From an uncultured Actinomycetota bacterium (GTDB lineage: Bacteria > Actinomycetota > Actinomycetes > Mycobacteriales > SCTD01), in assembly GCA_963844295.1 (NCBI GenBank), contig CAWJNR010000002.1:875816-939815 (forward strand): 64,000 nt of DNA. The letters are read 5' to 3'. The position numbers were made by a program, and so were the translations under genes. Positions 12,011 through 23,954 of this stretch are shown here, piece after piece; position 1 is the first letter of the stretch; each line of letters begins with the position of its first letter. A model generated the notes under the pieces. The model made no database searches, had not been told where the DNA came from, and saw only the letters and a program-made list of their open reading frames with translations.

Positions 12011-12095
12011 GCCCGGGTGGTGGAACGGCATACACGGAAGGCTTAAACCCTTCTGCCCGACAGGGATTGCGGGTTCGACTCCCGCTCCGGGCACC
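12011..12095 (+). tRNA. tRNA-Leu, anticodon UAA (class II, long variable arm)
   Basis: Hand-folded. Acceptor GCCCGGG pairs with TCCGGGC. Anticodon stem-loop is GAAGG-CTTAAAC-CCTTC, giving anticodon TAA. Long variable arm is TGCCCGACAGGGATT. T-arm is GCGGG-TTCGACT-CCCGC. Discriminator is A. Confidence 0.85.
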
Positions 12096-14797: not shown

Positions 14798-15825
14798 CTA
14801 GCCGGCTGGGTCGTCCTCGAGCTCGGCGGGGTCGGTGGGTCCCTCGGGGGCTCCGCGACCCACCAGCGGCAGCCGGCGGCGCAGCCGGGCCAGCCGCCCG
14901 CCGCCCGCTCTCGTCCTCCGGCATCGGGTCGACCTCGACGCCGGGCTCGCGGGCGGCGACCCGGGCAGCGAGCTGCACGTCCTGGACGGAGTCGCTGATC
15001 GGCACGCTGACCGGGATGTCGACGCCCAGGCTCTCGAGCAGCGCTCGGCAGCATCGCGTCGACGATCCGGCGGTAGCCGTCGGCCGACGGGTGGAAGCGG
15101 TCGGCGCTCCACAGGTGCGGGTGGGCGTGGAAGTCGTCGGAGAGCAGGTCGCCGAGGGAGACGGCGATACCGCCCGCGTCGACGGTCGCGACGGTCTGCG
15201 CGGCCGCCAGCTTCCGGCTCCACACCGCCGCGACGGTGCGCAGCGGCTGCATGACCGGCTTGACGGACCCCAGGTCAGGGCAGGTGCCGACCACGACCCG
15301 CGCGCCCGAGCGGCGGAGCGTCGCGACCGCGCGGGACAGCTCGCGCGCCGAGGTGGCGATCGGCACGCGGTGCGTGACGTCGTTGGCGCCGATGACGATG
15401 ACCGCGATGTCGACCGGGCGCCGCAGCGCCTTGGCGACCTGCACCTCGAGGTCGGCTGAGCGCGCGCCCACGACGGCCAGCACCTCGAGGTCGACCCGCC
15501 GGTGCAGGTCGCGGGCGATCCCGCCGGCGAGCAGCGCGCCCGGTGTCTGGTCGGCACTGTCGCAGCCCAGGCCCGCTGCAGCGGAGTCGCCCAGCACGAC
15601 CAGGTGGACCGGCTCGTCGCCGCGCTTGCCCCGGCCGTACGACCCGGCGGCCAGCGGGGCCTTCGTCGTCGGCACGCCGATCGTGCGGCGGGCCAGCTTG
15701 GCCTCGGTCGCGAGCACCGCGTAGGTCAGGCCGAGTGCGCCCGCGAAGCCGCCGCCGCCGTACGCCGTCTTGACCGCGACGTAGCGCGCACGCCGACCGG
15801 GCCGCGGAACCGCCGGCGCCCTCAT
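14798..15825 (-). CDS. SGNH/GDSL hydrolase family protein, two frameshifts (about 15050 and 14900) as sequenced
   Basis: VHLVVLGDSAAAGLG (block I GDS), VIVIGANDVTH, DRFHPSADGY (block V). The C-terminus has to be pieced from three frames (ALLESLGVDIPVSVPISD ..., then GRLARLRRRLPLVGRGAPEG ... DDPAG-stop at 14798). Confidence 0.75.
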
Positions 15826-16693: not shown

Positions 16694-18067
<1,374 letters not shown>

Positions 18068-18095
18068 CCAGCCTCAGCGAGCAGTCAGCCGGGGA

Positions 18096-19053
18096 TCAGC
18101 GGGTCGCCCCCAGGCGGGCGACGACGGCCGTGTGCGGCACGGTCAGCGCGAGCAGCGCCACGAGCAGACCGCCGGTGACGCCGACGACGAGCGCGAGGGC
18201 TGCCGTGCCGACCAGCGCGACCGCGCTCGGCAGCGCGGCCGCGCGGGCGAAGCGGACGAGCCCGGCGCGGCGGTGACCGGTCGGCGTGCGGGTCGAGCGC
18301 GACCAGGCGGGCGGTGTGCCGGACGGCGTGCCAGCCGGCGAACCACGCTGCGAACGCCGCCAGCGGCGGCAGCACCGCCGCGACGGCCACGACGAGCAGG
18401 AGCTCGGCGCCTCGGCGGCGGTCCCGCCTGGCGGTCAGCAGACCGGCGGCCACGAGGACCGCCGTCAGCCCCAGCAGCCCGGCGCGCACGGGGGAGTCGA
18501 GCAGCACGCCGGCCAGGCCGGGGTCGAGCCCGTCGAGCAGCGGGCGGACGTCGGCGGGACGCAGGACCAGCGGGAGCGCCACGACGGCGACGCCCGCCGC
18601 AGCGCCGGCGGTCCACTCCGGGCGGGCGCCGCGCAGGCGCGCCCAGCCGACCTCGCCCTCGGCGAAGTGGGCGGCGGCCAGGGCGAGCAGCACCAGCAGG
18701 GCCGGCAGCGGTGCGAGCAGCGCCACTCCCACCGCGGCGACGGCCGCCAGCGCGTAGCCGACCACGACACGCAGTCGCGGTCGTACCTCTCCCTGCGCCC
18801 AGCCCCAGGCCAGGTGGTCCACGGCGCCGTGCGGCAGGCCGAGCACCGCAGCGGCGACGAGCAGCGCCGGCCCCGCGGCCTGCAGCAGCTCGGGGGCGAC
18901 CAGCCCCGCGACCAGGGCGGTGAGCAGCACCCCGGTCGACAGCCGGGACGCGCCCCGCAGCAGCGGGTCCGGTGCGGTCGGTGCGGCGCCGGGAGGGGCG
19001 CTCGCGAGCAGGGTCACGCGGTGATCGTGCTCCTCGAACCAGGACAGCACCAC
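18096..19053 (-). CDS. blh: Brp/Blh family beta-carotene 15,15'-dioxygenase (retinal synthesis), one frameshift near 18290 as sequenced
   Basis: Multi-TM protein with the conserved His set: LGLPHGAVDH, AAAHFAEGE, GWHAVRH. After a frame change, the hydrophobic tail is GHRRAGLVRFARAAALPSAVALVGTAALALVVGV ... LTVPHTAVVARLGATR-stop. It is divergent from the opsin gene. Confidence 0.8.
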
Positions 19054-19244
19054 CCGAAAAGCGGTTCAGACCTTGTTCGAGTTGCGCGATCGGCCGTGCA
19101 CCCCCACCGTCTGACTCGCCCCGCCCCTGGTCCACCGGCCACTCCGGCCACCGGACCTCGCTCCGGAGCCGGACGCCCGACCGGGCGTCCGCCGCGTCGT
19201 GCCCGGTCGGCCCTGCGCCGGCCCACCTCCAGGAGGACTGCGCC

Positions 19245-20114
19245 GTGATCGTCGCCCAGGGGATCCAGATCCCCGAGCTCTCGTCAGGTCAGTACGAGAC
19301 CGTCTACAACCTGTTCTCTCTCGCCATCGCCAGCCTGTTCTTCACCGGGCTCTACCTGGTGCTCTCGCAGAAGCGGGTGCTGCCGCGCTACCGCAACGCG
19401 CTGATCGTCAGCGCCACGGTCTGCTTCATCGCGACCTACCACTACGTACGGATCTTCGACAACTTCAAGGAGTCCTACGTCACCGAGGCGCAGGGCGGCC
19501 AGGGCGTCTACACGCTCACCAACATCCCGTTCAACGAGGGCTACCGGTACGTCGACTGGTTCCTCACCGTGCCGCTGCTGCTCGTCGAGACCATCGCCGT
19601 GCTGGCGCTGGCCCGCGCGGTCGCCAAGCCGCTGCTGACCAAGCTCGTCATCGCCTCGGCGCTCATGATCGCGCTCGGCTACCCCGGTGAGATCACGACC
19701 GACACCGGCCCGCGCCTGCTCTGGGGCACGCTCTCGACGATCCCGTTCATCTACCTGCTCTACGTGCTGTTCGTCGAGATCAACAAGTCCCTCGACCGGC
19801 AGCCGCCGGAGGTCCGCAGCACCGTCGGCAAGCTCCGGATCATGCTGGTCGGTCTGTGGGGCGTCTACCCGATCGCCTACCTCATGCCGGTCCTCGGCTT
19901 CGACGGCCCGGACGCCTTCGTGCTCCGGCAGGCCGGCTACTCGATCGCGGACATCCTCGCCAAGGCCGCGTTCGGCCTGGTCATCTACAAGATCGCCCGG
20001 ATCAAGTCCGTCGTGGACGACCCGGCGTTCGACGACGAGGACGACTCGATCAGCGGCCTCGAGGCCGAGCCGGTGCCCGGTCAGCGCGGTCGCGCCGCCG
20101 CGACGACGGCCTGA
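19245..20114 (+). CDS. Microbial rhodopsin, xanthorhodopsin/actinorhodopsin-like, DTE-motif light-driven proton pump
   Basis: GTG start is preceded by AGGAGG. Seven TM segments. Helix C is RYVDWFLTVPLLLVE (D104, T108, E115). YHY gives His66. Helix G is YSIADILAKAAFG (D236, Schiff-base K240). LMIALGYPGE and WGTLSTIPF closely parallel Salinibacter xanthorhodopsin, from memory. Confidence 0.92.
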   Translation: MIVAQGIQIPELSSGQYETVYNLFSLAIASLFFTGLYLVLSQKRVLPRYRNALIVSATVCFIATYHYVRIFDNFKESYVTEAQGGQGVYTLTNIPFNEGYRYVDWFLTVPLLLVETIAVLALARAVAKPLLTKLVIASALMIALGYPGEITTDTGPRLLWGTLSTIPFIYLLYVLFVEINKSLDRQPPEVRSTVGKLRIMLVGLWGVYPIAYLMPVLGFDGPDAFVLRQAGYSIADILAKAAFGLVIYKIARIKSVVDDPAFDDEDDSISGLEAEPVPGQRGRAAATTA

Positions 20115-20212
20115 TCCGTCCCTGAGCGCCCGCACCGCCGCCACGTCCCCCGTGGCGGCGGTGCGGGCCCGGGCTCCTACCACCTCGCGCTCGTCACCGG
20201 AGAGGTCCCGCC

Positions 20213-21014
20213 GTGGACTACTGGGTGTTCGACCTGATCTTCCTCGTCCTGCCCGCCGCGCTGCTGCTGCGCGGCCTGCGCCCGCCGCGCGCGCTGCTCG
20301 TCGCCACCGCCGCCCTCGCCGGCGTCGCCCTGCTCTGGACCGCGCCGTGGGACGAGCACCTCGTCCGCACCGGCGTCTGGTCGTACGGCCCCGACCGCGT
20401 CCTCGCCACGATCGGCAGCGTGCCGGCGGAGGAGTACGCCTTCGTCGTCCTGCTCGTCGTCCTGGTCGCCGCGTGGGGGCTGCGCACGGGGCGGCTGCCG
20501 GCGCTGCCCGTCGCGCCCCGCGGCAGCCGGACCTCCGGGGCGCTCGGCTGGCTGGCCGTCGCGCTGGCCGGCGCGGCCGCCGTCGCCGTCGGCGGGCCAG
20601 CTGCGCTACCTCGGGCTGCTCCTGGTCTGGGTCGCCCCGCCGCTCGCGCTCCAGCGGGCGGTCGCCGGCGACCTGCTCCGGCCGCGGCTGGCCGACCGGG
20701 CGCTGCTCGCGCTGCCGGTGGCGCTGTGGCTGTGCGCGGCCGACCGGCTGGCGCTGGCCGACGGCATCTGGTCGATCGCGCCATCCAGCAGCACCGGGAT
20801 CCTCGTGCTCGGCCTCCCGCTCGAGGAGGGGCTGTTCTTCCTGCTCACCACCTGGCTGGTCGCCGACGGCCTGGTGCTGGCCACCGACCGCGCCGCCCTC
20901 GCCCGGGCCCGCGCGCTGGTCAGGCGGCCCGCGCGGTCCGCTCGCGCCACCAGGCGACCGTCAGCTCCCACGTCCCTTCCAGCGGCGTCGGCTCGACCCC
21001 GAACGCCTGCGTGA
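20213..21014 (+). CDS. Lycopene cyclase domain-containing protein (fused CrtYc/CrtYd type), frameshift near 20600; 3' end uncertain
   Basis: First half: MDYWVFDLIFLVL ... TAPWDEHLVRTGVWSYG ... GSVPAEEYAFVVL. Second half, in another frame: QLRYLGLLLVWVAPPLALQ ... LADGIWSI ... GLPLEEGLFFLLTTWLV. The tail overlaps the convergent gene and looks non-native. Confidence 0.7.
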
Positions 21015-21861
21015 AGGCGCTGCTGTCCAGCACGTAGGGCGCGGTGAACGAGTGCCGCATCTCCTCGAGCTCTCGCACGAGCGGCACGGCGACGCCCACC
21101 GCCCGCAGAAGCGCGTGCGGCACCGACGCGACCGGCACGGGCGGGACGCCCGCCGCGCGGCACAGGCCGTGGACGGCCTCCCGCACGCTCACGGCGGGCG
21201 CGGTCGGGACGTGCCAGGCCCGTCCCCACGCCCGCTCCTCGCTGCCCAGGACGGCGAGCGCTGCGCCGACGTCGAGGACCGACGTCCAGCTGTGGGGCAC
21301 GTCGACGGGCGGGATGACCCGCACCCCGCGCCCGGCCAGCACGCGCGGCACCACCCGCGCGGCCAGGTGCCCGCCGTCCAGGACGCCGGGGCCGACGAAG
21401 TCCGAGCCGCGCGCCTCCACCACGCGCAGGTCACCGGCCTCGTGCCGGGCCAGCGCGTCCTCCCACATCTGCTTCCGCACGCGGCCCTTCGCGCCGGTCG
21501 GCGTCAGCGGCAGGTCTTCGGTGATCGGTCCGGTCACCCGGCCGTAGGCGTACAGGTTGCCCATGGTCACGAGCACCGCGCCGCTGCCCTCGGCGGCGGT
21601 CAGCAGCGCCCTCGCCACCGGCGGCCAGTCCTGCTCCCAGCGGGTGTACGCCGGGTTGGCGCAGTTGTAGAGCGCGGCCGCACCGCGGGCCGCCGACGTG
21701 AGGGCGGCCGCATCCGCGGCGTCGAGTGCGTGGTGCTCCACCTGACCGGAAGAGGTCCCGCCCGAGCGCGAGAGCACCCGGACGTCGTGGCCCACGGCGA
21801 CGAGCCGCTCGGTCAGCGCCGTGCCGACAGGTCCCTTGCCGAGGACGACGTGCAGGCTCAT
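20920..21861 (-). CDS. NAD(P)-dependent epimerase/dehydratase family oxidoreductase
   Basis: Starts at MSLHVVLGKGPVGTALTERLVAVGHDVRVLSRS (Rossmann GxGxxG-like). It is divergent from the TetR gene. Confidence 0.75.
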   Translation of the reverse strand: MSLHVVLGKGPVGTALTERLVAVGHDVRVLSRSGGTSSGQVEHHALDAADAAALTSAARGAAALYNCANPAYTRWEQDWPPVARALLTAAEGSGAVLVTMGNLYAYGRVTGPITEDLPLTPTGAKGRVRKQMWEDALARHEAGDLRVVEARGSDFVGPGVLDGGHLAARVVPRVLAGRGVRVIPPVDVPHSWTSVLDVGAALAVLGSEERAWGRAWHVPTAPAVSVREAVHGLCRAAGVPPVPVASVPHALLRAVGVAVPLVRELEEMRHSFTAPYVLDSSAFTQAFGVEPTPLEGTWELTVAWWRERTARAA

Positions 21862-21880
21862 GGTGCCTCCTGATATCAGC

Positions 21881-21947
21881 GAGAGCGGTGCTCTCGTCTG
21901 CGAGCACTGTGCACGCCGCAGGAGGTCGCTGTCAAGAGCACTGCTCT
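21881..21947. promoter_or_regulatory. Two related palindromes in the divergent epimerase/TetR promoter region (candidate TetR operators)
   Basis: GAGAGC-GGT-GCTCTC at about 21881-21895 and AGAGCA-C-TGCTCT at about 21935-21947. Both share the AGAGC...GCTCT core. They lie in the 121-bp spacer between the two divergent starts. Confidence 0.4.
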
Positions 21948-21982
21948 CGACAGCGATCAGCGCTCTCCCTACACTGCGCGCC

Positions 21983-22681
21983 ATGGTCCTGTCCGCCCGT
22001 GCCCGGGCCCGCGCCGAGGTCGAGCGCGACATCAAGGCGGTCGCCGCCCGCCACCTGGCCGAGGCCGGTGCCGCCTCGCTGTCGCTGCGGGCCGTCGCCC
22101 GCGAGCTGGGGATGGCGTCGTCGGCGCTCTACCGCTACTACCCGAGCCGTGACGCGCTGCTGACCGCGCTGATCGTCGACGCCTACGACGCGATCGGGAG
22201 CGCCGCCGAGCAGGCCGACGACCCGGGGGTCGAGCCGGGGGCGCGCTGGGCCGGTGTCTGCAGGGCGGTGCGGACGTGGGCCAAGGCCCACCCGCACGAG
22301 TGGGCGCTCGTCCACGGGACGCCGGTGCCCGGCTACGCCGCCCCGCAGGACACGATCGCGGCCGCCACGCGCCTGGCCCGCGTCATGGCCACGATCGTCG
22401 TGGCGGCGGTGGACGACGGGTCCCTGCGACTCCCCCGCCGACCCCTGCCGGGCCCGCGCCTGGTCACCGACGCCGTGCTGGAGGTGGTCGAACGGGAGCC
22501 CGGGCCGCCGTACGACGACCTGCTCGAGCGCTCGGTGGTCCTGCTCGCCGGCCTGGTGGGGACGGTGTCGTACGAGCTGTTCGGCCACACCCGTGGCACC
22601 TTCACCGACGACGACGCGTGGTTCGACATCGCCATGGCCGTCCTCGCCGAGGGCGTGGGGCTGGACCTGCCGCTGGGCTGA
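21983..22681 (+). CDS. TetR/AcrR family transcriptional regulator
   Basis: HTH region: AARHLAEAGAASLSLRAVARELGMASSALYRYYPSRDALLTALIVDAY. Confidence 0.85.
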   Translation: MVLSARARARAEVERDIKAVAARHLAEAGAASLSLRAVARELGMASSALYRYYPSRDALLTALIVDAYDAIGSAAEQADDPGVEPGARWAGVCRAVRTWAKAHPHEWALVHGTPVPGYAAPQDTIAAATRLARVMATIVVAAVDDGSLRLPRRPLPGPRLVTDAVLEVVEREPGPPYDDLLERSVVLLAGLVGTVSYELFGHTRGTFTDDDAWFDIAMAVLAEGVGLDLPLG

Positions 22682-22703: not shown

Positions 22704-23954
22704 ATGGACGACCGCGAGCAGACCGCCGCCCACATCGCCGCCGCCGGCAGCGCCGACTTCGGCTCCGAGGTGCACGGCGACACGACGGCCGACCGCTGGG
22801 CCGGCGGCGGCTACGGCTTCGAGACCCTCGCGATCCACGCCGGTCAGGACCCCGACCCGACGACGGGCGCCGTCGTCGTGCCGATCTACCAGACCTCCAC
22901 CTACGTGCAGTCCGAGGTCGGCCAGCACAAGGGGTACGAGTACAGCCGCAGCGGCAACCCGACCCGCACCGCGCTGGAGACCTGCCTGGCGGCCCTCGAG
23001 GGGGGCCGCACCGGGCTGGCCTTCGCCAGCGGACTGGCCGCCGAGGACTGCCTGCTCCGCACGGTCACGAAGCCGGGCGGGCACGTCGTCATCCCCGACG
23101 ACGCGTACGGCGGCACGTACCGGCTGTTCGCGCAGGTCCTGCAGCGCTGGGGGGTCGCGCACACGCCGGTCTCGCTGGCCGACCTCGACGCCGTGCGCGC
23201 GGCGGTGCGGCCGGAGACGAGCCTGATCTGGTGCGAGACGCCGACCAACCCCCTGCTCGGCATCGCCGACATCGCCGGGCTGGCGGGGATCGCGCACGAC
23301 GCCGGTGCGCGGCTGGCCGTCGACAACACCTTCGCGAGCCCGTACCTGCAGCAGCCGCTCGCCCTCGGCGCGGACGTCGTCGTGCACTCGACGACGAAGT
23401 ACCTCGGCGGCCACTCCGACGTCGTCGGCGGCGCGCTCGTCGTCTCCGACCCGGCGCTGGGCGAGGAGCTCGCCTACCACCAGAACGCGATGGGCGGCGT
23501 CCCCGGCGCCTTCGACTCCTGGCTGGTGCTGCGCGGCGCCAAGACGCTCGGCGTGCGGATGGACCGGCACTGCGCCAACGCGGCCGCGGTCGTCGAGCTG
23601 CTGCTCGCCTCGCCGCAGGTGGCGCAGGTCCTCTACCCCGGGCTGCCCGACCACCCCGGCCACGACGTCGCCGCGAAGCAGATGAGCGGCTTCGGCGGCA
23701 TGGTCAGCTTCCGCCTCGCCGGCGGTGAGCAGGCCGCGCTGGACGTCTGCCGGTCGACGACCGTCTTCACCCTGGGCGAGTCGCTCGGCGGCGTCGAGTC
23801 GCTCATCGAGCACCCCGGCCGGATGACCCACGCCAGCGTCGCCGGCTCGCAGCTCGAGGTGCCGGACGACCTGGTGCGGCTGTCGGTCGGCATCGAGACG
23901 GCCGGCGACCTGCTGGCCGACCTCGAGCGGGCGCTCGGCAGCCTGTCCGCTTGA
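22704..23954 (+). CDS. metB: Cystathionine gamma-synthase/lyase (Cys/Met metabolism PLP enzyme)
   Basis: GFETLAIHAGQDPDP ... YEYSRSGNPTR ... VVHSTTKYLGGHSDVVGG (PLP lysine) ... ESLGGVESLIEHP. Confidence 0.9.
   Translation: MDDREQTAAHIAAAGSADFGSEVHGDTTADRWAGGGYGFETLAIHAGQDPDPTTGAVVVPIYQTSTYVQSEVGQHKGYEYSRSGNPTRTALETCLAALEGGRTGLAFASGLAAEDCLLRTVTKPGGHVVIPDDAYGGTYRLFAQVLQRWGVAHTPVSLADLDAVRAAVRPETSLIWCETPTNPLLGIADIAGLAGIAHDAGARLAVDNTFASPYLQQPLALGADVVVHSTTKYLGGHSDVVGGALVVSDPALGEELAYHQNAMGGVPGAFDSWLVLRGAKTLGVRMDRHCANAAAVVELLLASPQVAQVLYPGLPDHPGHDVAAKQMSGFGGMVSFRLAGGEQAALDVCRSTTVFTLGESLGGVESLIEHPGRMTHASVAGSQLEVPDDLVRLSVGIETAGDLLADLERALGSLSA

Follow-up and report, generated by a model that had tools for sequence, protein, structure and literature searches.

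Gloeobacter rhodopsin (6NWD) and psXR (9WFA), both cyanobacterial xanthorhodopsins, pump H+ outward and bind a carotenoid as antenna (PMC12779958), and xanthorhodopsin of Salinibacter ruber (XR; 3DDL) represents the same family. The actinorhodopsin systems of freshwater acI/Luna actinobacteria consist of actR, crtYc, crtYd and blh, with crtEIB located elsewhere; at least one genome (AAA044-D11) has the four genes side by side, transcription of actR far exceeds that of the pathway genes, and the cyclase carries a PxE(E/D) motif (10.1101/367102). ActR has a glycine at the XR-156 position and dual chromophores (PMC8113403). Metagenomic surveys of cold desert soils, including Antarctic ones, report energy-converting rhodopsins in dominant Actinobacteriota orders (10.1101/2020.08.06.239558); the passages considered here describe no locus structure, cbs–metB address or leader.

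Here we analyse a rhodopsin gene cluster in a 64-kb stretch of DNA (the window) from an uncultured actinobacterium of the Frankiales/Mycobacteriales, with ~74% GC. The interval between cbs and metB comprises, in this order, blh on the minus strand, the opsin gene, a fused two-domain lycopene cyclase gene and an epimerase/TetR pair, and all these genes were found at the positions given in a preliminary description of the same DNA:

16694–18067, plus strand: cbs (cystathionine beta-synthase), left flank; TIGR01137 at 644 bits, PALP and CBS domains
18096–19053, minus strand: blh (Brp/Blh beta-carotene 15,15'-dioxygenase), frameshifted in the assembly; TIGR03753 and PF15461 once corrected; start codon uncertain
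19245–20114, plus strand: opsin, 289 aa, intact; GTG start; PF01036 at 6e-39
20213–21014, plus strand: crtY, fused CrtYc/CrtYd-type lycopene beta-cyclase, frameshifted; 266 aa after correction
20920–21861, minus strand: NAD-dependent epimerase/dehydratase-family gene; PF01370 at 2e-10
21983–22681, plus strand: TetR-family regulator, divergent from the epimerase gene; TetR_N and TetR_C_33
22704–23954, plus strand: metB (cystathionine gamma-synthase), right flank; PRK07811 at 648 bits

The cluster follows the same pathway logic as the actinorhodopsin systems; it differs from them in the fusion of the two cyclase halves into one gene, in the placement of its opsin in a terrestrial Frankiales-like subclade (the more distant opsin groups are about 55–65% identical), and in its set position on the chromosome, between cbs and metB. 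It is a common and already known type, with an opsin of the ordinary actinobacterial xanthorhodopsin-like kind: there are 6,588 opsin homologues below 1e-30, the best 120 of these 6,588 are all 78–100% identical, and the nearest relatives are MAGs of Frankiales, Frankiaceae and Mycobacteriales. An ordinary actinobacterial XR-like photosystem, with its working, its history and its assembly errors read together as proposed below, is in our opinion a likely account of the locus.

The opsin

The preliminary description recognized an intact microbial rhodopsin of 289 aa, an assignment borne out by the Pfam match, and an independent short-read contig (L001) encodes an identical protein. The key residues are H66, R101, D104, T108, L112, E115, G161, D236 and K240. 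In an alignment with bacteriorhodopsin (BR; reference sequence verified against PDB 1o0a), D104/T108/E115 correspond to D85/T89/D96, D236 and K240 to D212 and K216, and the tuning residue L112 to L93, while H66 aligns with XR H62. The DTE motif, the histidine, D236 with the Schiff-base lysine and the leucine at the spectral-tuning position, all previously proposed, do fall on BR/XR functional positions. The antenna glycine is a different matter. A glycine is indeed present at the XR G156 site, where a carotenoid-antenna fenestration is expected (PMC12779958, PMC8113403), but it is not the glycine of LGYPGE named before, since XR G156 aligns with G161 (in LLWGT, the counterpart of BR W138); G145 and G148 of LGYPGE align with BR G122 and G125.

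The best matches among solved structures are Gloeobacter rhodopsin (GR; 6nwd, 3e-80), psXR (9wfa, 2e-79), 9hfk (6e-77) and XR (3ddl, 1e-64), and full-length similarity to GR, psXR, 9hfk, XR and TR lies in the 60% range. GR and psXR align with the opsin almost end to end, with near-identical motifs in helices C, E, F and G, and share with it the DTE motif, the histidine of the His-Asp pair, the leucine at the tuning site and the glycine at XR-156. In contrast to both, the opsin has an acidic C-terminal tail of ~30 aa, and its host, an actinobacterium, has no chlorophyll photosystems. Residues H62, D96, E107, G156 and K240 of S. ruber XR have counterparts in the opsin; however, the identity is lower, XR M208/M211 are replaced by L213/V216 as in GR, and salinixanthin is not expected in the window host.

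The opsin is thus of the xanthorhodopsin/Gloeobacter-rhodopsin type and, judging from its residues, a predicted outward proton pump. It would bind all-trans-retinal at K240 and pump protons outward in green light, with D104, paired with H66, as the putative proton acceptor, E115 as the cytoplasmic donor and L112 as the tuning residue. G161 may leave open a fenestration for the ring of an antenna carotenoid; the colour and the use of an antenna are both predictions. That the opsin instead serves as a sensor or moves another ion seems extremely improbable: nothing specific speaks in favour of it, the DTE motif and the His-Asp pair are those of the XR, GR and PR pumps, no transducer gene adjoins the opsin, and all of its nearest characterised relatives pump H+ outward, with NaR and ClR matching some 50 orders of magnitude worse.

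Retinal-making genes and frameshifts in the window

The genes for Blh and for a fused lycopene cyclase had been assigned to the right families, but it had been overlooked that neither is an intact open reading frame. In the blh frame as written (18085–19053), the final ~65 codons are out of frame, owing to one surplus base at about 18271–18278 relative to L003, L005, L006 and L089; the gene is continuous in these four relatives and in L004. PF15461 covers only profile positions 1–199 of 267 in the uncorrected sequence, compared with 1–264 after removal of one base, when TIGR03753 reaches 138 bits (cutoff 95). A surplus G or C in GGCGGGCCAG (20591–20600) likewise places the two domains of crtY in different frames, and the frame as written (20213–21037) yields a match to one domain only, under the Pfam cutoff; crtY is a single intact frame in seven other loci (L002, L003, L004, L085, L086, L088 and L090). 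The corrected protein matches TIGR03462 in two stretches at 110 bits (cutoff 39) and contains PAEE at residue 71 and PLEE at residue 202, i.e. PxEE in both cyclase domains (for the PxE(E/D) criterion, see 10.1101/367102). We accept the two genes as blh and crtY because the corrected proteins pass the NCBIfam cutoffs and PxEE occurs in both domains. The 3' end of crtY overlaps that of the epimerase gene by ~95 nt.

The fused cyclase would convert lycopene to beta-carotene, which Blh would cleave into two retinals; the lycopene would be supplied by crtEBI elsewhere in the genome. As noted before, the window lacks crtE, crtB and crtI: a Pfam scan of the 50 largest coding-like frame segments elsewhere in the 64 kb turned up none of their families. 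Given this absence, the module would depend on lycopene from the host, and calling it self-contained is not warranted.

At least 13 one-base frameshifts were verified in the window, including those in blh and crtY; the others are as follows:

12758: BaxI
25342: DUF2269 gene
25608: VWA gene
40.8–42.0 kb: DUF255 gene, five frameshifts
51927: fumC
57682: xth
58179: glpX

The frameshifted fragments each retain conserved protein sequence and a GC3 above 0.9. Because such lesions are many across the window and neither site is disrupted in short-read relatives (five for the blh site, five for the crtY site), those in blh and crtY are very probably assembly errors, as far as assembled sequences allow one to judge. 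Their density, two in 1.76 kb against 0.36–0.55 expected, is somewhat over the window average (P of two or more about 0.05–0.1 under a uniform rate).

Should blh and crtY be real pseudogenes instead, the photosystem would be decaying and the opsin would be a remnant or would rely on scavenging retinal or beta-carotene from neighbours. This would agree with the fact that, in the 4.6-kb interval, both blh and crtY, and they alone, are shifted by +1 against all the relatives examined, and with the occurrence of opsins without an adjacent blh (L086, L088, L091, L094, L095); the title of one paper (PMC7734400) reports a functional rhodopsin in actinobacteria without a known retinal gene. We nevertheless consider decay unlikely, as the same type of single-base frameshift affects fumC, glpX, xth, BaxI, the VWA gene and, five times, the DUF255 gene. 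Moreover, GC3 stays at 0.93–1.00 in each half of blh and crtY, which are also conserved at the family level and have no stops or other lesions, and the crtY lesion falls where G and C homopolymers meet (GGG/CC), a typical setting for length miscalls.

History of the cbs–metB junction

Direct adjacency of cbs and metB, found in many actinobacteria, is the ancestral state, and a close relative (L008, cbs 93% identical) has the direct junction without an insert. The claim of an insertion holds to this extent; however, the junction is occupied across the whole clade. The opsin–crtY pair sits there in relatives with cbs identities of 71–98%, the module occupies it in L005, L006, L018, L086–88 and L091–96, and the complete five-gene layout recurs in L092/L093, loci whose opsins are only 84% identical. 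On the cbs tree, a single old gain is the most parsimonious history, and the absence from L008 is best read as a putative loss. Within this clade the opsin–crtY pair has long been established at the junction, to which blh and the epimerase/TetR pair are added variably; from time to time the module has been lost.

The acquisition of the module as a recent lateral island, which the preliminary description had suggested, is very unlikely. Apart from L008 and the adjacency in many actinobacteria, it could draw on the occurrence of the blh–opsin–crtY triad in unrelated contexts (L004 and L085) and on an opsin tree that departs in part from the cbs tree (the L086 opsin is 82% identical, its cbs only 71%). 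Yet GC3 is host-like in every interval gene measured, the epimerase figure, which was read out of frame, being left out: values for opsin, blh and crtY are 0.93–1.00 (0.97), equal to those of the flanking host genes. No tRNA, integrase, IS or flanking repeat was found, and the stops of cbs and blh are only 28 nt apart. Together with the breadth of occupancy and the parsimony argument, this speaks for long residence at the junction. In the neighbour-joining (NJ) tree of opsins, the window clade groups more closely with L004 and L085, whose triads lie in other contexts (84% identity), than with L088 (80%, cbs 91%), which hints at possible lateral exchange or cassette replacement; the crtY identities disagree with this signal.

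The divergent epimerase/TetR pair, both members of which were confirmed by Pfam on opposite strands, is a separate variable piece, missing from L003 and L090. The epimerase gene is present in L002, L092, L093 and L107, absent from L003, L090, L086 and L088, and occurs together with the TetR gene across loci; it is a variable passenger without an evident link to the photosystem.

Expression signals of the opsin gene

The opsin gene is preceded by a putative promoter and a leader, both conserved in a clade-specific manner, and followed at its 3' end by a terminator-like hairpin:

19076–19110, plus strand: conserved promoter-like element of the opsin (presumed promoter)
19170–19223, plus strand: two hairpins in the predicted ~135-nt leader (RNAalifold, covariation)
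19231–19236, plus strand: Shine-Dalgarno AGGAGG, 8 nt before the GTG, read off the sequence
20128–20168, plus strand: perfect 18-bp GC hairpin right after the opsin stop codon (folding); no U-tract

The promoter-like element consists of an invariant TTCGAGTTGC (19076–19085) that contains a −35-like TTGCGC (19082–19087) and, after a spacer of 17 nt, a −10-like CACCGT (19105–19110). The motif is exact in 12/12 closer-clade loci examined, lies 133–169 nt 5' of the opsin start in the 11 loci measured, and is kept with or without blh and in any genome context; 1.5 Mb of loci contain only three hits besides these. More distant opsins have variants with one or two mismatches upstream.

The leader hairpins are CGGACGCCC-GACC-GGGCGUCCG (19170–19191) and GGUCGGCC..GCCGGCC (19205–19223). 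Across 16 leaders, RNAalifold and pair counts gave 91.5% of cells paired, six pairs with compensatory changes (1/500 shuffles) and a covariation score of 0.288, compared with at most 0.143 in slid controls. The total folding energy was no better than that of shuffles, i.e. without thermodynamic excess, and the leader has no match in Rfam; a covariance model detects it solely in the clade whose opsins share ~75% identity or more.

A consensus terminator scan, which required a T-run, found nothing, and long hairpins of unrelated sequence occupy the post-opsin position in L002, L003, L004, L085, L086 and L090. The hairpin may be terminator-like or stabilise the mRNA. With its own putative promoter, the ~135-nt leader and a strong hairpin after the stop, the opsin would probably be transcribed mostly alone and above the level of crtY.

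Gene content and setting of the cbs–metB interval

The window has a GC content of 74.2%, and Pfam scans of the surroundings of the cbs–metB interval identified a conserved actinobacterial core block comprising eno, ppx, thiolase, cbs, metB, greA, PIG-L deacetylase, pckG, fumC and glpX genes, so that the housekeeping setting given in the preliminary description is correct. Five genes are found between cbs and metB: blh, the opsin gene, a lycopene-cyclase-domain gene (crtY), an epimerase-family gene and a TetR gene.

Features of the cbs–metB interval and its flanks (positions in the window)
16694-18067; cbs (TIGR01137, 644 bits)
minus strand; Brp/Blh dioxygenase gene (blh)
19245-20114; opsin gene, 289 amino acids, GTG start, preceded by AGGAGG at 19231-19236
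20920-21861; minus strand; epimerase-family gene
21983-22681; TetR gene
22704-23954; metB (PRK07811, 648 bits)

The crtY and epimerase genes are convergent and share about 95 nt at their 3′ ends (20920-21014); a similar overlap of about 118 nt occurs in L002 (one of the loci from relatives' genomes and metagenomes, designated here by L-numbers), and the crtY tail is shorter in loci without the epimerase gene. The divergent epimerase–TetR spacer (21862-21982) contains palindromes of the GAGAGC..GCTCTC type, which could be TetR operators.

The opsin contains the seven-helix Bac_rhodopsin domain PF01036 (6.4e-39, residues 22-250). Its best matches among proteins of solved structure are Gloeobacter rhodopsin (6nwd, 3e-80), psXR (9wfa, 2e-79) and 9hfk (6e-77; a literature search found no paper on PDB 9HFK), followed by xanthorhodopsin (3ddl, 1e-64), 5azd (2e-64), which we take to be thermophilic rhodopsin, and Kin4B8 (4e-60). 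This xanthorhodopsin-clade set thus scores between 1e-60 and 1e-80, whereas all other matches are at 1e-30 or worse, with chloride and sodium pumps, proteorhodopsin and bacteriorhodopsin (BR) falling between 1e-17 and 1e-30. Aligned to BR (reference sequence identical to PDB 1o0a), R101, D104, T108 and E115 of the opsin correspond to BR R82, D85, T89 and D96, giving a DTE motif at BR positions 85, 89 and 96; L112 corresponds to L93, the green/blue tuning site, W205 and Y208 to W182 and Y185, and the helix G aspartate and Schiff-base lysine, D236 and K240, to D212 and K216. H66 aligns with H62 of xanthorhodopsin (XR), the histidine that pairs with the acceptor aspartate. D104, T108, E115, H66, D236, K240 and L112 thus all correspond to the appropriate BR or XR positions, and the protein is predicted to be a type-1 microbial rhodopsin functioning as an outward proton pump of the XR clade.

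The proposal that a glycine would open a carotenoid-antenna site can stand, but the residue had been misplaced. The two glycines of LGYPGE (G145 and G148) correspond to BR G122 and G125, and are thus glycines in BR as well; it is G161, in LLWGT, that aligns with XR G156 and BR W138. A glycine at position 156 of SrXR, which opens the fenestration, has served as a criterion (PMC12779958) that was also used on an actinorhodopsin (PMC8113403). By virtue of G161, the opsin would be an antenna-type (fenestrated) xanthorhodopsin.

Homologues of the opsin are numerous (6,588 proteins below 1e-30; an identical protein is encoded in sequencing run ERR9903758), and the best 120 of these are 78-100% identical to it; the few named proteins among these 120 come mostly from Frankiales or Frankiaceae metagenome-assembled genomes (MAGs). 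A report on Antarctic desert soils (10.1101/2020.08.06.239558) describes rhodopsins in their dominant Actinobacteriota, and the same pathway logic is known from freshwater actinobacteria, where a contiguous actR-crtYc-crtYd-blh arrangement has been described (10.1101/367102). The locus adds a further genome-anchored, putative case of rhodopsin-based phototrophy among uncultured actinobacteria of high GC content from soil or cold desert, and its particulars are modest: a fused cyclase, a fixed address between cbs and metB with modular accessory genes, and a conserved leader.

Interrupted reading frames of the retinal genes

Both genes expected to supply retinal are interrupted in the given sequence. 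Three-frame translation and GC3 hidden-Markov segmentation place a frame change near 18275 in blh, where alignments with L003, L005, L006 and L089 reveal one extra base at about 18271-18278; uncorrected, the match to PF15461 stops at profile position 199 of 267 (positions 1-199). Removal of one base yields a Blh protein of 318 amino acids that scores 138 bits against TIGR03753 (cutoff 95; profile positions 3-259 of 260) and covers positions 1-264 of the 267 in PF15461. Its residues H75, H129, H242 and H246, which may be the counterparts of the iron ligands of the characterised enzyme, belong to conserved motifs encoded upstream of the frameshift. In crtY, the same two methods locate a frame change near 20590 that leaves the two domains in two frames, and comparison with L002, L003, L004, L089 and L090 points to a single additional G or C within GGCGGGCCAG (20591-20600). 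Only one domain of the uncorrected open reading frame (ORF) is matched, below the cutoff, whereas the corrected product, a fused cyclase of 266 amino acids, reaches 110 bits against TIGR03462 in two stretches (cutoff 39); the crtY genes of relatives are single ORFs of 245-327 amino acids. Each half of the corrected protein carries one catalytic-type motif (PAEE at residue 71, PLEE at residue 202), in agreement with the PxE(E/D) motif used as a criterion for cyclase halves (10.1101/367102). The gene is accordingly annotated as a putative lycopene beta-cyclase of the heterodimer type (CrtYc/CrtYd) in fused form. The family assignments of the preliminary description, a Blh dioxygenase and a fused lycopene-cyclase-domain gene, hold after one-base corrections, but neither gene is an intact reading frame as given.

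The interruptions have to be judged against the window as a whole, in which we verified at least 13 one-base frameshifts in 64 kb, these two included, some of them in genes of central metabolism.

Frameshifts in other genes of the window
12758; BaxI_1 gene, with profile positions 2-160 and 168-232 in different frames
25342; DUF2269 gene, by comparison with L002
25608; VWA gene, by comparison with L002
40840-42037; five frameshifts in a DUF255/thioredoxin-domain gene, every piece of which is still conserved protein
51927; fumC
57682; exonuclease III-family gene (xth)
58179; glpX

In addition, partial matches to Flavin_Reduct, Aminotran_5 and DUF4245 domains occur on short frames at 59-63.6 kb. 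All frameshifted fragments retain a GC3 above 0.9 and show no further damage. The window's proteins are found on a 2.05-Mb contig, which suggests a long-read assembly, apparently one that was left unpolished. No relative compared at the blh and crtY sites is frameshifted at either; their sequences stem from assemblies other than this one, several of which were clearly built from short reads. Two events in 1.76 kb are slightly above the uniform expectation of 0.36-0.55, but frameshifts are visibly clustered elsewhere in the window too. It is thus very probable that the frameshifts in blh and crtY are assembly errors rather than marks of real pseudogenes. Since similar frameshifts affect fumC, glpX, xth and the BaxI, VWA and DUF2269 genes, and five of them the DUF255 gene, we reject pseudogenisation as the main biological reading and consider it improbable. 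That the strain truly has no functional blh and crtY and scavenges retinal seems less likely to us than even the tentative idea, discussed below, of a cis-regulatory unit accompanying the opsin. Taken at face value, two seemingly broken retinal genes would have made a case for an opsin without retinal synthesis; a noisy assembly explains them best. The most useful outcome of our analysis is a warning: with an assembly this rich in frameshifts, claims on gene content from this genome need polishing of the sequence first.

Further frame switches indicated by the GC3 hidden-Markov model at 14894/15042, 29728, 50798 and 53456 were left uncounted, as they could not be confirmed as frameshifts. The first pair concerns a GDSL-lipase gene, in which the coding-like signal switches frame twice (14894-15042) before the thiolase gene without encountering stop codons; comparison of this region with relatives makes no clear frameshift evident. 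The sole RNA gene of the window, a tRNA-Leu (anticodon TAA, 12011-12095), closely precedes the BaxI_1 gene and is spanned by the stop-free stretch that was taken as the ORF of that gene.

History of the cbs–metB junction

To place the interval in its evolutionary context, species-representative genomes were scanned with cbs and the genes downstream were mapped. Directly adjacent cbs and metB genes were found in Klenkia, Blastococcus, Modestobacter, many MAGs, the close relative L008 (cbs 93% identical), L012 and L013. An opsin and a cyclase gene occupy the junction in L005 and L006 (cbs 98%), L088 (91%), L018 (85%) and L086/L087 (71%), and likewise in the metagenomic loci L091 and L094-L096. 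The junction is thus conserved and polymorphic for the presence of the insert, and the comparison bears out part of the view of the locus as a laterally acquired island: the genes are an insertion relative to an order retained in many genera and in L008, but the insert is shared with relatives whose cbs is 71-98% identical.

Recent arrival of the insert was rejected. The GC3 values of the opsin (0.97), blh (0.93) and crtY (0.99-1.00) genes compare with 0.92-0.99 in host genes and reveal no atypical base composition; that the opsin gene is lower in overall GC is due to codon positions 1 and 2, i.e. to amino-acid composition. No meaningful repeats flank the interval, no tRNA target is present at it (the window's only tRNA is at 12011), neither integrase nor transposase domains turned up in scans of the interval and of the larger coding segments of the window, and the insert is present at the junction clade-wide. 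The stop codons of cbs and blh are 28 nt apart. In a neighbour-joining (NJ) tree of cbs, L008 falls within a group of carriers, and a loss is the most plausible explanation of its empty junction. Compared with the ancestral gene order of actinobacteria, we read the interval as an old, clade-wide and modular insertion, not as a recent island.

The modularity is apparent from the gene complement of the relatives. The full order MBL-cbs-blh-opsin-crtY-epimerase-TetR-metB is found again in L092/L093, with an opsin of only 84% identity; in L003 and L090 the order is blh-opsin-crtY-metB, the epimerase/TetR pair being absent; and L086/L087, L088, L091, L094, L095/L096 and L018 have the opsin and crtY genes at the junction with no blh at the locus. 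The triad blh-opsin-crtY is also found in unrelated contexts in L004 and L085. Within the clade, the opsin–cyclase pair thus has a fixed address between cbs and metB, while blh and the epimerase/TetR pair are gained and lost as modules. In small NJ trees of the opsin, L004 and L085 are nearer neighbours of the window clade than L088 is, whereas crtY disagrees and follows cbs, and the opsin of L086 is 82% identical at a cbs identity of 71%; the opsin trees may hint at some lateral exchange. The module had also been called self-contained, a term we would not keep, because Pfam scans of the larger coding segments of the 64-kb window found no families of the crtE, crtB or crtI type.

Several variants of the arrangement were encountered in passing. 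A small membrane-protein gene takes the place of blh in L018; blh is downstream of the opsin gene on the same strand in L100, L105-L109, L114, L121, L129 and L130; and the epimerase/TetR pair is gained or lost independently of the opsin module.

Conserved sequences flanking the opsin gene

An invariant TTCGAGTTGC begins at 19076, within the blh–opsin spacer, and is present in every closer-clade opsin locus examined, regardless of blh or genome context, and is located 133-169 nt before the start codon where measured. Only three other exact matches occur in 1.5 Mb of loci, equal to the chance expectation. Variants with one or two mismatches, such as TTCAACTTGC and TACGAGTTGC, precede the opsins of more distant actinobacteria by 71-130 nt. 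With 17 nt between them, TTGCGC and CACCGT resemble a pair of −35 and −10 elements, the position of which implies a leader of about 135 nt. Scans of 18950-20300 with sigma-70 and terminator consensus found no match, so the promoter and terminator calls rest on conservation rather than on consensus. The motif (19076-19110) was seen at the same position in L001-L005, L018, L085-L089 and L091-L099.

Two hairpins in the leader (19170-19191 and 19205-19223) remain paired across the aligned leaders, in part through compensatory changes: pairing is kept in 91.5% of cells, six pairs are changed on both sides (equalled by 1 in 500 shuffles), and the covariation score is 0.288, compared with at most 0.143 in slid controls. 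These figures suggest modest covariation. A riboswitch-like structured leader was considered and rejected, as the folding energy of the whole leader is no better than that of shuffles (z from −1.2 to +1.4), Rfam holds no matching family, and only the two local hairpins covary, modestly. A covariance model of the leader matches only the clade with at least about 75% opsin identity. A helix sequestering the Shine–Dalgarno sequence, predicted by alifold from 10 sequences, vanished with 17.

An 18-bp perfect GC hairpin directly follows the opsin stop codon (20128-20168), and hairpins of unrelated sequence occupy the same place in the opsin–crtY spacer of L002, L003, L004, L085, L086 and L090. It is conceivable, though we regard it as rather doubtful, that a cis-regulatory unit of its own, not described before, accompanies the opsin whatever its address. 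The unit would be made up of the invariant −35-region motif TTCGAGTTGC, the leader of conserved length (about 135 nt) with its two covarying hairpins, and the positionally conserved 3′ hairpin. If true, this would suggest that rhodopsin expression in terrestrial actinobacteria is under the control of a specific regulator or sigma factor, which might respond, for example, to light or energy state. The putative conserved promoter and the leader provide a small lead for studies of actinobacterial rhodopsin regulation.

The hairpin at 20128-20168 is probably a terminator or attenuator without a U-tract, or an mRNA stabiliser, and its location after the stop codon fits an opsin gene transcribed mainly on its own. 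Such predicted separate transcription matches the situation reported for acI actinobacteria, in which transcription of actR far exceeds that of the pathway genes (10.1101/367102).
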